Source: a virus. Taken from it: a stretch of DNA of 5,811 nt. This document shows positions 291-3,430 of the stretch, piece after piece. The notes below the pieces were generated by a model. That model worked only from the letters and a program-made list of their open reading frames with translations. It did no database searches and was not told where the DNA came from. How positions within the stretch are numbered: position 1 is the stretch's first letter; every line of letters starts with the position of its first letter. The position numbers and the translations under genes were made by a program. Where the stretch lies: IMG/VR virus record IMGVR_UViG_3300045988_026689; one strand, 5' to 3'.

Positions 291-1151
291 ATGGAAACAT
301 TATTGAAACTTTTTCCGTACCTCTTGCAAGGACTAAGCATGTTAACAGACATCGCAACAAGCAGCAACCAGAGCAGCGCTAAGAACACCGAGGCAGCGGG
401 CAGCGAGACCACAACCGGCAGCGAGACCACAACCGGCAGCTTAACAGCACCGCAACAGATAGGTGCAGCACAAATCAGCACGCCAACAGGTATCACAACA
501 ATCGGGAATGAAAGCAGCGTAAACAACGCAAACGCACTGCAAATGATGAGCGGACTATTGAGCAACCTCGCGAACGCTGGAAGCCAAGCAAGCGCAAAAA
601 AGTACAACAGCGCAGAAGCGGCAGCAGAACGAGCGTTCCAGAAGGAAATGCGGGGGACGGCCTATCAGGATACAGTAAAGGACATGATCGCGGCGGGCAT
701 CAATCCTATTCTGGCAGCGACCAACGGAGCAACAAGCGCACCATCGGGAGCATCTGCAAGCATTGGCAGCCAACATTACAACCAGCAGAGTGCACAGGCT
801 GCAAGCGTATCAGCGATGTACGAATACGGCAACAACACGGCAGAACTGGCAGAAAAATATTTACAGCTATCAAAACAAAGCTCAAGCGCAAAACAGTACA
901 AAGCAGCCAAAAGCTGGGAACAATCAGCAAGCGAGCTGGCAAGCTCAAGCGCAAAACAAGTACAAAAGTACAGCTATGCAGCTAACAAGTTAGGCACAAG
1001 CCTTGCGGGAGCCGGCAAAGCAGCAAAAGACGCAGCAAAAAAGGCCGGCGCAGCAGCAAAAAAAAACGTTGACAAGACAGCAAAGAGCTATGCAGACAAA
1101 CAGATTGAAAAATACCAATCTGGGCAATTCGACGCATACAGAGGAAACTAA
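291..1151 (+). CDS. VP2: Microviridae DNA pilot / minor capsid protein (VP2, H-protein analogue).
   Basis: 286-aa ORF directly downstream of VP1. It has an Ala/Ser/Gln/Lys-rich low-complexity composition. It contains the block AERAFQKEMRGTAYQDTVKDMIAAGINPILA, which matches the conserved NTAYQR..D.K.AGLNPxL core I recall from gokushovirus VP2 proteins. The start is uncertain: ATG 291 has no adjacent SD (see the split-SD finding) and ATG 339 is the alternative. Confidence 0.85.
   Translation: METLLKLFPYLLQGLSMLTDIATSSNQSSAKNTEAAGSETTTGSETTTGSLTAPQQIGAAQISTPTGITTIGNESSVNNANALQMMSGLLSNLANAGSQASAKKYNSAEAAAERAFQKEMRGTAYQDTVKDMIAAGINPILAATNGATSAPSGASASIGSQHYNQQSAQAASVSAMYEYGNNTAELAEKYLQLSKQSSSAKQYKAAKSWEQSASELASSSAKQVQKYSYAANKLGTSLAGAGKAAKDAAKKAGAAAKKNVDKTAKSYADKQIEKYQSGQFDAYRGN
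399..440 (+). repeat. In-frame 18-nt tandem duplication inside VP2 (ggcagcgagaccacaacc x2 plus a partial ggcagc), encoding GSETTT-GSETTT-GS.
   Basis: Units at 399-416 and 417-434 are identical; the partial third unit is at 435-440. Confidence 0.9.
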
Positions 1152-1187: not shown

Positions 1188-1226
1188 AGTAACAATAATC
1201 CAAAAAATAAAGAATGTGGAAAACTT

Positions 1227-1396
1227 GAGTTTTCAACACTTTCAACAGGTTTTCAACATAAAGTTGCACAAAGAAATCCGTCATAATGACGAACATTCAA
1301 CAATTCAACAAGTTTTCAACAAAGTTTTCAACAGGCAAAAAGGCAATAAATAAACGTAGTAACATTAAAAAAACGAGTTTTCAACGCTTTCAACAC
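1227..1396 (+). repeat. Iteron-like array of nine same-orientation copies of the TTCAAC(A) core, five of them as GTTTTCAAC(A/G), in three clusters.
   Basis: TTCAAC starts at 1232, 1241, 1252 | 1296, 1304, 1315, 1327 | 1380, 1389. Spacing within clusters is 8-12 nt. The outer 22-mers gagttttcaacactttcaacag (1227-1248) and gagttttcaacgctttcaacac (1375-1396) differ at 2 positions. Confidence 0.9.
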
Positions 1397-1412
1397 TACT
1401 ACTACTACTACT
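1395..1412 (+). repeat. (ACT)6 trinucleotide microsatellite in the intergenic region.
   Basis: actactactactactact read directly at 1395-1412, abutting the last TTCAACA copy. Confidence 0.95.
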
Positions 1413-1449
1413 ACAACAAGTTAATAATAAAAGAAAGGGAGGTGTCAAA

Positions 1450-1489: not shown

Positions 1490-2479
1490 ATGCCATGTAC
1501 AAAACCATTAGTATTTCAGATGGATACGAAAAAACCAAGACTGTGGGGAAGTCTGGAAAACCTATCAAAACAAGGGCTACAAACGGACATCATGGACGGA
1601 ATCAAAAAAGGAAAATTCGCACTGTTACCATGCGGTAAATGCGAGTATTGCCGCAAACAGATGGCTGACCAATGGGCAACCAGGATAGAGCTGGAGGCCA
1701 AAGAATGGGACGATGTAATTTTTCTAACGCTGACGTATGACGATGAACATATTCCATACGGCGAAATTCTCAAAGGATACCAGAGTATCCAAAGTCAAAC
1801 AGTAAGCAAGCGAGACGCGCAGCTATTCCTAAAAAGACTGCGGAAAGCGTACAAGAAACCAATAAAATATTTCCTAGCGGCTGAATATGGCGACAAGACA
1901 AAAAGACCACACTACCACGCGATAGTATTCGGACTAAAACCACCTGATGCACAATGGTATAAAAACCAAAAGGGCAACAGCTATTTTAAAAGCAAGTGGC
2001 TAGAAAAAATATGGGGCAAAGGCATGATAGACTTTTCACCAGCACAACCAGGAAGTTTTGCATACGTGGCACAGTACGTCAACAAAAAAGCCATAGGTGC
2101 AGAGGAAAGCGCGAAATACTGGATGCAGGGCAGAGAACCAGAGTTTAGGATCATGTCGAAAGGCATCGGCGAAAAATATCTAAACGAGCACAAAGATGAA
2201 ATTTTAAAAACAGATAGCATCATCTGTGCAGGAGGACGCGAGAAAAGGCCTCCACGCTATTTTGATAAAATCCTAGATAAAGATACAAGCCAAGACACTG
2301 AAAGCTATTTCAAGGCACATTCTGACGAACTAAGAGAGGTTAGAGCCAGACGCAGACGCAACGCAATACAGAGTTTGATCAATCTCGAACAGAGCACGAA
2401 CGTGGATTATGAAACCTATCTAAACATCCAGAAAGAAAAAGATAATCTAAGGCAAAAATGGCGTGAACCGAAAGTTTGA
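1490..2479 (+). CDS. VP4: Rolling-circle replication initiator (VP4 / phiX174 protein A family, HUH endonuclease).
   Basis: ORF 1475-2479. I place the start at ATG 1490 because MPCTKPL... resembles the usual MPC..P N-terminus of gokushovirus VP4. Motifs present: PCGKCEYCR (Cys cluster), FLTLTYDDEH (motif 1), RPHYHAIVFG (HUH motif 2) and FAYVAQYVNKKA (the Y-x3-Y-x2-K double-tyrosine motif 3). Confidence 0.93.
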   Translation: MPCTKPLVFQMDTKKPRLWGSLENLSKQGLQTDIMDGIKKGKFALLPCGKCEYCRKQMADQWATRIELEAKEWDDVIFLTLTYDDEHIPYGEILKGYQSIQSQTVSKRDAQLFLKRLRKAYKKPIKYFLAAEYGDKTKRPHYHAIVFGLKPPDAQWYKNQKGNSYFKSKWLEKIWGKGMIDFSPAQPGSFAYVAQYVNKKAIGAEESAKYWMQGREPEFRIMSKGIGEKYLNEHKDEILKTDSIICAGGREKRPPRYFDKILDKDTSQDTESYFKAHSDELREVRARRRRNAIQSLINLEQSTNVDYETYLNIQKEKDNLRQKWREPKV

Positions 2480-2666: not shown

Positions 2667-2819
2667 ATGAAAGGTTACGATGATTACACAGGACTGTTCA
2701 CAAGCCGCTACTACGCAAAAAAATACGCAAAAGGAGATGAGGTAGTCGTAAAAGTTGAGGGTGGATACAAAGTAATAACCGCCGACTATTATTACAAGAT
2801 CTGGAAAACGCAAAAATGA
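2667..2819 (+). CDS. Hypothetical 50-aa Tyr/Lys-rich protein, translationally coupled to the downstream peptidase.
   Basis: ATG 2667 to TGA 2817-2819: MKGYDDYTGLFTSRYYAKKYAKGDEVVVKVEGGYKVITADYYYKIWKTQK. GGTGA lies 6 nt upstream of the start. The stop overlaps the next start as ATGA (2816-2819). The ORF is too short to appear in the supplied track. It has no hydrophobic segment and I recognise no family. Confidence 0.45.
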   Translation: MKGYDDYTGLFTSRYYAKKYAKGDEVVVKVEGGYKVITADYYYKIWKTQK

Positions 2820-3226
2820 AAGGATTGACAAAAATGATTAAAAGCTACATAATGAACACAGACGGAAACGTGAAGCTTGCGAGACACTTCTCGGTAAAGG
2901 AATTCGCTTGCAAGGACGGGTCACCAGTAGTTTTCATCGACGACTACTTATACACCATCCTGGACATCCTAAGGCATAAGATAGGGAAGCCGGTAATCAT
3001 AACGAGCGGATACAGGACGCCAGAATGGAACAAAAAATGCGGGGGAGCAAAATACAGCTACCACATGCGCGGTATGGCCGCAGATATCCGGGTGGAAGGA
3101 ATGAGCGCAAAACAGCTTGCCAACGAACTGAATGCAATCATACCGGAAGAATGCGGCATTATCGTATACAAGAGCTGGGTGCACTTTGACGTGCGCACCG
3201 GCAAAAAGTACAGAAAGGGGGTGTAA
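2816..3226 (+). CDS. Zinc D,D-/L,D-peptidase of the M15 family (Peptidase_M15_3 / DUF882-like fold); putative peptidoglycan hydrolase (endolysin-like).
   Basis: The 136-aa ORF contains FSVKEFACKDG, LRHKIGKPVIITSGYRTPEWNKKCGGAKYSYHMRGMAADI and WVHFDVR. These give the SGYR...N..GG...S.H..G.A.D ... H.D arrangement of Zn ligands (H, D, H) characteristic of M15 cell-wall peptidases. The start is ambiguous between in-frame ATGs at 2816, 2834 and 2852. Confidence 0.9.
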   Translation: MKGLTKMIKSYIMNTDGNVKLARHFSVKEFACKDGSPVVFIDDYLYTILDILRHKIGKPVIITSGYRTPEWNKKCGGAKYSYHMRGMAADIRVEGMSAKQLANELNAIIPEECGIIVYKSWVHFDVRTGKKYRKGV

Positions 3227-3345: not shown

Positions 3346-3348
3346 AAA

Positions 3349-3430
3349 GGCTGCATGCTGAAGGCTGCATGCTGAAGGCTGCATGCTGAAGGCTGCATGC
3401 TGAAGGCTGCATGCTGAAGGCTGCATGCAG
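3349..3430 (+). repeat. Perfect 14-nt tandem repeat (ggctgcatgctgaa) x5 plus a partial sixth copy that ends in the 10-bp palindrome ctgcatgcag.
   Basis: Units at 3349-3362, 3363-3376, 3377-3390, 3391-3404 and 3405-3418 are identical. The sixth copy, ggctgcatgcag (3419-3430), diverges at unit position 11. Each unit contains the palindrome GCATGC. The unit length is not a multiple of 3. Confidence 0.97.

Follow-up and report, generated by a model that had tools for sequence, protein, structure and literature searches.

In bacterial chromosomes, the basal unwinding system (BUS) of oriC consists of tandem DnaA boxes, a short spacer and at least three DnaA-trios, with unwinding taking place beyond them (PMC8287927). 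In its published definition, a box with at most two mismatches to TTATCCACA lies 0–16 bp from the first trio, and up to four mismatches to the same sequence are allowed in the second box of the pair (PMC8287927). The sequence TTATCCACA is the DnaA-box consensus, which takes the form TTWTNCACA in origin prediction (PMC6669920; PMC7561715), where oriC is expected to hold at least three such boxes, with no more than one mismatch and a mean distance below 100 bp (PMC7561715). In B. subtilis, the sequence 5'-CTACTATTACTTCTACTA-3' lies opposite the trios and is also the DnaD recognition element (PMC10201434), and 5'-CACCTACTACTATTACTACTATGA-3' is found at the origin of C. difficile (PMC7561715). Here we compare these systems with a repeat array located in the genome of a gokushovirus.

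The array and its module in the window

The window, that is, the whole stretch of 5,811 nt that was analysed, contains a circular gokushovirus genome of 5692 nt plus a 119-nt terminal overlap, and its plus strand carries every gene:

4256 through the end to 252, plus strand: VP1
291–1151, plus strand: VP2
1490–2479, plus strand: Rep/VP4 (Pfam PF23343)
2816–3226, plus strand: M15 peptidase
Also on the plus strand of the window: a VP5-like gene and a VP3-like gene

The VP2 stop (1151) and the VP4 ATG (1490) are separated by 338 nt with no supported gene inside. A first-pass annotation had reported nine same-orientation TTCAAC copies in this gap, and all nine are indeed found on the plus strand, at 1232, 1241, 1252, 1296, 1304, 1315, 1327, 1380, and 1389. 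The hexamer occurs 12 times in the whole window, against 3.08 ± 1.69 expected, and a count of 12 was reached in none of 200 shuffles. The longer form GTTTTCAAC(A/G) is present in five of the copies, as had been described, and the outer repeats (1220–1247 and 1368–1395), singled out as near-identical, lie 148 nt apart and share 86% identity over 28 nt. What had gone unreported was a tenth, inverted copy at 1215–1223, which reads TTTTCCACA on the minus strand; a (CTA)6 run at 1396–1413, unique in the genome, which starts where the reported array ends; and the fact that the entire block is a conserved module of other microviruses. The array sits inside this module of about 210 nt (1215–1437), which comprises the following parts:

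1215–1223, minus strand: inverted DnaA box TTTTCCACA, without mismatch to TTWTNCACA
1230–1258, plus strand: box cluster 1, with TTTTCAACA (1230), CTTTCAACA (1239) and TTTTCAACA (1250)
1262–1270, plus strand: possible weak extra box AGTTGCACA, with two mismatches to TTWTNCACA, within the conserved sequence GTTGCACAA
About 1279–1293, no strand assigned: small palindrome CGTCATAATGACG, separating clusters 1 and 2
1294–1333, plus strand: box cluster 2, with CATTCAACA (1294), AATTCAACA (1302), TTTTCAACA (1313) and TTTTCAACA (1325)
1378–1395, plus strand: trio-proximal tandem boxes TTTTCAACG (start 1378) and CTTTCAACA (start 1387)
1396–1413, minus strand: six DnaA-trios (3'-GAT-5' x6); the plus strand reads (CTA)6, with TnnT repeats
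1414–1437, no strand assigned: AT-rich tract CAACAAGTTAATAATAAAAGAAAG, a candidate unwinding element

The repeat unit is the 9-mer TTTTCAACA, one position off TTWTNCACA. Among 114 unique copies of the module, the position aligned to 1313 holds TTATCCACA in 24 and TTTTCAACA in 72, and the position aligned to 1250 holds TTTTCCACA in 39 and TTTTCAACA in 57. At the distal end of the module, the 1215–1223 box and the segment 1228–1238 make up a 10/11-bp palindrome, and inverted distal boxes are also seen in other phage clades and in bacterial oriCs. The boxes of cluster 1 have start-to-start spacings of 9 and 11, an arrangement that recurs, together with the GG dinucleotide, in the oriC of an Armatimonadaceae MAG, and cluster 2 aligns to AACAAGTTATCCACAGGTTTATCAACA in Clostridia oriCs. 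Conservation at 1262–1270 amounts to 7–8 of 10, and AGTTGCACA is a possible additional, weak DnaA box. Other clades carry different palindromes at the place of CGTCATAATGACG; the palindrome of the window includes the sequence TGACGAA, which we take to fit the Spo0A-box consensus TGNCGAA. The box at 1378 is followed directly, in a 9-bp register, by the box at 1387; both are directed at the trios, which begin at 1396. The (CTA)6 run is near-invariant across the 114 module copies, as is AACAAGTT within the AT-rich tract. GC content at 1400–1429 is 23%, and the AT-rich tract, only about 23 nt long, runs into the VP4 ribosome-binding site.

Set against the published features of bacterial origins, the window presents five boxes within 119 bp (1215–1333), a cluster of the kind used in general oriC prediction, and its tandem boxes share one orientation toward the trios, at a constrained box-to-trio distance. 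Taking trios as at least three consecutive NAN (consensus 3'-GAT-5') on the strand with 5'-TGTGGATAA-3', the window contains six perfect 3'-GAT-5' trios, oriented as in B. subtilis, C. difficile and the 111 bacterial origins described below, and its CTACTACTACTACTACTAC is close to the published B. subtilis and C. difficile sequences. The AT-rich element is present at 1414–1437 as a short tract. The trio-proximal boxes of the window, TTTTCAACG and CTTTCAACA, have three mismatches each and thus exceed by one base the limit set for the BUS box, within which the boxes of KX513876 (TTTTCAACA) and KT264791 (TTTTCCACT) fall. The GC-rich spacer is absent from the window and from its clade (29 of 155 phages), and a spacer (CTCC, GCCC, others) separates box and trios in 126 of the 155; three real origins, those of Intestinibacillus, Butyricicoccus and an Oscillospiraceae MAG, are spacer-less as well. 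Lastly, the module lies between VP2 and VP4 of a microvirus and not beside dnaA and dnaN, and is therefore to be regarded as an oriC-like module, not as a chromosomal origin.

Several other elements were noted around the module and elsewhere in these genomes. A strong Shine-Dalgarno sequence (GGGAGGTG) lies upstream of the VP4 ATG, with a 9-bp hairpin between the two (1436–1490). This hairpin is perfect (CGGCACAAG-N13-CTTGTGCCG, at 1450–1480), is kept in KX513876 and, in altered form, in KT264784; control of VP4 translation is one possible role for it, and that of a Rep signal another. Directly after the VP4 stop, a GC-rich block with several small hairpins (2481–2575) is kept, in gene orientation throughout, in about 50 related genomes, and in other clades its counterpart directly flanks the DnaA module; its fold z-score is only −0.42, and it could be a strand-specific replication signal. 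At 3347–3428, between a small basic J-like ORF and the one after it, the window holds a perfect 14-nt tandem repeat (AAGGCTGCATGCTG, x5.9) that differs in copy number among the nearest relatives (11 in L045, 3 in L077, none in other clade members). Alternating CGCG/CACG blocks, Z-DNA-like in sequence, were observed in other clades (L002 1125–1170, L003 3693–3736, L005 2978–3012), where they adjoin the AT-rich end of the module or sit just upstream of VP4; the window has no such block.

Distribution of the module and of its signature

The module is found in at least 155 gut gokushovirus genomes, with proteins only 32–48% identical to those of the window. In a megablast search with the genome, MG945447 and KT264791, two otherwise unalignable microviruses, matched only at 1231–1430, with 83–88% identity, and the module aligns end to end between these genomes despite the divergence of their proteins. 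A search of viral contigs with the 19-nt core TTCAACAATTCAACAAGTT matched at least 120 contigs, with 121 microvirus loci, GenBank records included, listed among the matches; 33 GenBank microvirus records match too, and these come from human, pig, mink, raccoon and monkey samples. The first-pass annotation had named absence of the repeats from close relatives as evidence against a DNA element, and they are present in every close relative found. Conservation peaks at the boxes, the CTA run and the AACAAGTT that follows it, and in the window clade 19 variable sites fall in spacers versus 6 in boxes. In 155 phage genomes, forward boxes occur at about 20 times the genome background in the 230 nt upstream of the trios (median, 5 strict boxes), reverse-strand boxes have a mean of 0.63, and each module carries 8–10 TTCAAC or TCCAC units. 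The density of forward boxes and the scarcity of variable sites within boxes speak for selection on the boxes.

Outside this group of phages, no match to the module was found in the plasmids searched, and phiX174, Chp2, phiMH2K and SpV4 contain neither a (CTA)3 run nor a box-trio module. Viral contigs yielded few canonical C-type box-trio sites, six in all, each in a contig of 14–76 kb. Four long non-microvirus contigs (L029, L044, L090, L105), considered as clues to a prophage or host, turned out to be chance or coding matches to TTCAACAATTCAACAAGTT, and a 10.9-kb contig considered as a prophage (L098) is a chimera in which two different microviruses meet at a 55-nt repeat.

In order to examine bacterial genomes, a phage-derived pattern, TTTCMACN{1,5}CTACTACTACNNCTAC, which recovers 91 of the 114 phage copies, was scanned on one genome per bacterial species. 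The scan, partly circular in that the pattern itself specifies box and trios, returned at least 120 bacterial sites, against some 11 expected by our own rough estimate under equal base frequencies. According to tblastn, 111 of the 120 matches listed are closely preceded by dnaA and/or closely followed by dnaN in matching orientation, both genes flanking 93 of these 120, and several of the remaining nine are cut off by locus ends; Pfam recovered DnaA upstream and DnaN downstream in both loci tested. The bacterial flanks are origin-like (e.g., gTTATCCACAgTTTCCACAggccCTACTACTAC... followed by AT-rich DNA), and an abutting pair, TTATCCACA + NTTTCCACA, precedes the trios in bacterial oriCs. Judged from sequence, the box-spacer-trio signature is in bacteria an almost exclusive mark of the chromosomal origin among the matches listed. 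The distribution of box-to-trio gaps is alike in the two groups: 122 of 155 phages and 99 of 111 bacteria have the commonest gap, 5 nt with box position 9 counted. When a profile built from the phage module is aligned to bacterial oriCs (nhmmer), the alignment continues past what the pattern specifies, with E-values to 3e-11 and scores that carry a high compositional bias.

The boxes of the phage module are predominantly of the A type (7.6 per module versus 1.4 of the C type, in 155 phage genomes). C at box position 6 belongs to the accepted DnaA-box consensus; A-type boxes are hence probably weak sites for canonical DnaA. Among the matches listed, an A-type TTTCAAC stands beside the trios in 10 of 111 dnaA-dnaN origins, and one Ruminococcus origin has six A-type boxes. 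The DnaA recognition helix is without its conserved His in 4 of 7 A-type versus 5 of 87 C-type origins (Fisher p = 0.0013, or 0.015 without actinomycetes, for a small sample with phylogeny uncontrolled). In the bacterial dnaA loci L212, L140, L149, and L220, the His is replaced by Y, S, S, and N, respectively. The His-less DnaA helices give hints of an altered box specificity and of possible host groups in the Clostridia.

Readings of the module

The reading that we favour, with moderate confidence, is that the segment 1215–1437 copies or mimics the BUS of bacterial oriC, and would serve, on the dsDNA replicative form, for unwinding and loading in dependence on host DnaA. Host DnaA-ATP would bind the boxes of the double-stranded replicative form and, starting at the proximal pair, oligomerise along the trio strand; the DnaA oligomer would melt the AT-rich tract, and the host helicase-loading machinery (DnaD/DnaB/DnaI-DnaC in Bacillota) would then enter the opened tract. 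Replicative-form replication would in this way be started, or boosted, through DnaA, besides the rolling circle of Rep (VP4). Theta-type amplification or plasmid-like carriage may follow from this, or easier access for Rep. The link to replication control proposed in the first-pass annotation fits the evidence presented here, and its alternative of a phased array for a host protein is compatible with it. A more ambitious version, which we put forward tentatively and with more doubt than conviction, holds that the dsDNA form is a DnaA-dependent theta mini-chromosome tied to host initiation, and that the TTCAACA box may track a subgroup of Clostridia with a His-less DnaA. Were the mini-chromosome true, the Microviridae would gain a second, plasmid-like mode of replication and carriage beside Rep rolling circle, and were the box to track those Clostridia, the module would also predict the host. 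Against the BUS reading, a DnaA origin is not required by phiX174 and similar rolling-circle phages, and the cultured microviruses phiX174, Chp2, phiMH2K and SpV4 are without the module.

The position and strand of the module with respect to the phage genes vary among the 121 genomes:

Upstream of VP4, on the same strand as the genes: 42 genomes
Downstream of VP4, on the opposite strand to the genes: 75 genomes
Downstream of VP4, on the same strand as the genes: 4 genomes

As an internal control, the GC-hairpin block (2481–2575 in the window) is in gene orientation in 49 of 49 genomes. The closest pair of opposite orientation is 92.9% identical over 5.4 kb, and inversion of the module has occurred repeatedly, the nearest relatives of the four downstream, same-strand genomes being all of opposite orientation (L053 versus L258; L002, L008, L080). 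No clear terminal inverted repeats, of the kind expected of an invertible switch, were found at the inversion junctions. As the phage always packages the coding strand, a gene, or a strand-specific signal such as a nick origin or a minus-strand origin, would not withstand inversion, whereas a protein-binding module acting as duplex would.

DnaA could also bind the array as a regulator or sink, after the fashion of datA and other DnaA-box clusters, with no part in a replication origin; VP4 expression would then be tied to the DnaA status of the host, or host re-initiation blocked. There are many boxes per genome, the module of the window is directly upstream of VP4, in a region (1187–1489) where no sigma-70-type promoter was found, and the trio/AT-rich end points toward VP4 in 117 of 121 genomes. 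We nonetheless deem this role unlikely. Neither trios nor an AT-rich tract are needed by a regulator or sink, yet the trios, their register and AACAAGTT are what is most conserved at about 40% protein identity, and the module lies downstream of VP4 in 79 of 121 genomes. It is this strong conservation of the trios and of their register that leads us to favour unwinding over a pure sink.

A role at the single-stranded stage, in which the trio strand (through DnaA) or its TnnT complement (through DnaD) would recruit helicase and primase for synthesis of the complementary strand, could explain why either orientation works, and would provide an ssDNA phage with the priming that it needs from host proteins only. 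The two strands of the B. subtilis unwinding region are each recognised by a different initiation protein (PMC10201434), and a hairpin that can form at 1215–1238 in the window clade would make one double-stranded DnaA box. This inverted box is, however, limited to some clades, and nine or ten boxes would remain single-stranded in the virion strand, leaving their strong conservation unexplained. The ssDNA structure is moreover not significant, with fold z-scores of −0.03 and −0.04 for the module on both strands relative to shuffled sequence, all of which makes such a role improbable.

The first-pass annotation had likened the array to the iterons bound by Rep at plasmid and geminivirus origins. 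Direct repeats at about one helical turn are iteron-like, and the module always adjoins VP4, up- or downstream. The comparison fails to hold, however, when genomes are set side by side: the boxes are essentially identical at a VP4 identity of 32–39%, with no co-variation between the two, their variants converge on the host DnaA-box consensus TTATCCACA, and DnaA-trios adjoin the array, as they adjoin the boxes of bacterial oriC. The orientation of the module with respect to the packaged strand flips, which is unsuited to a strand-specific nick origin, and iterons for VP4 are hence very unlikely. We find no more to recommend the proposal of another host protein with TTCAACA specificity, such as a direct-repeat response regulator or a nucleoid protein, whose probability we put at least as low. 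The A-type unit is dominant in the array and its 8–12-bp direct-repeat spacing resembles that of regulator sites, those of OmpR/PhoB-type regulators being direct repeats with a similar spacing, but such a protein would explain neither the TTATCCACA and TTTTCCACA variants at aligned positions, nor the trios, nor the near-exclusive matches to dnaA-dnaN origins.

A small protein (GTG 1165 or TTG 1003 to 1353; ATG 1286 to 1462) or a structured RNA is extremely unlikely and can be set aside. In its favour, reading frames cross the repeats uninterrupted, since TTCAACA contains a stop codon in none of the three frames. Against it, the variable sites (9/7/9) are not biased towards any codon position, start codons are not conserved (median of 31 codons from the first start, fewer than 10 codons in 19 of 114 copies), 75 of 121 genomes carry the module antisense to all their genes, the small ORFs of the region match no Pfam family above threshold and, as regards RNA or ssDNA structure, Rfam yields nothing above threshold (sub-threshold L20-leader, E = 0.48), fold z-scores are about 0 and both orientations occur. 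The preference of the first-pass annotation for a DNA-level over a coding function is borne out by these data, and the synonymous-site pattern that it had named as a sign of a protein gene was looked for in relatives, where none was seen.

Comparison with known systems

Gokushoviruses rank with the most abundant phages of the mammalian gut and persist for years. A conserved host-origin module would offer a concrete handle on their replication, in the form of DnaA dependence and of the origin-like behaviour predicted for a cloned module, as well as a way in which plasmid-like carriage might be achieved with no integrase and a sequence feature possibly useful in host assignment. If the favoured BUS reading is true, the module, some 210 nt long, would constitute a minimal box-trio unit that occurs naturally, selected outside the chromosome and tolerant of inversion.

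Dense boxes outside oriC, which could titrate or regulate DnaA, are a trait that the module shares with E. coli datA and the DnaA-box clusters of B. subtilis. As far as we are aware, these clusters are without conserved trios or an unwinding element, whereas trios and unwinding element are the most conserved parts of the module. With plasmid and geminivirus iterons the module has in common same-orientation repeats at about one helical turn beside a rep gene, and it departs from them in showing no co-variation with Rep, in matching the consensus of the host initiator and in having no fixed orientation with respect to the nicked strand. Signals of the phiX174 type comprise a primosome assembly site as well as an origin located within gene A; in the ABC primosome, the "A site" is a DnaA-box hairpin. 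These are host-factor-dependent signals of ssDNA replicons, and the stem of the window clade (1215–1238) likewise holds a DnaA box; phiX174-type signals are, however, strand-specific single-strand structures, whereas the module has no significant structure and flips.

The likeness to the BUS, as found in B. subtilis (incC boxes 6/7, DnaA-trios and AT-rich region) and in C. difficile oriC2, extends to the abutting same-orientation boxes, the spacer of 0–4 nt, GC-rich in most phage clades, the presence of at least three 3'-GAT-5' trios with AT-rich DNA downstream, the additional boxes 50–170 bp upstream and a top strand that is nearly the same (CTACTAC...). The module differs from the BUS in its replicon, a 5.7-kb ssDNA rolling-circle phage, in boxes that are mostly TTCAACA and not TCCACA, in its variable orientation relative to neighbouring genes and, in the window, in having no GC spacer and proximal boxes weaker than the published threshold. 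A literature search returned nothing relevant on DnaA boxes or trios, or on oriC-like origins, in Microviridae or phages. What seems new here, as far as sequence comparison can tell, is hence the presence of a known oriC unwinding module in an unexpected replicon, that of an ssDNA phage.
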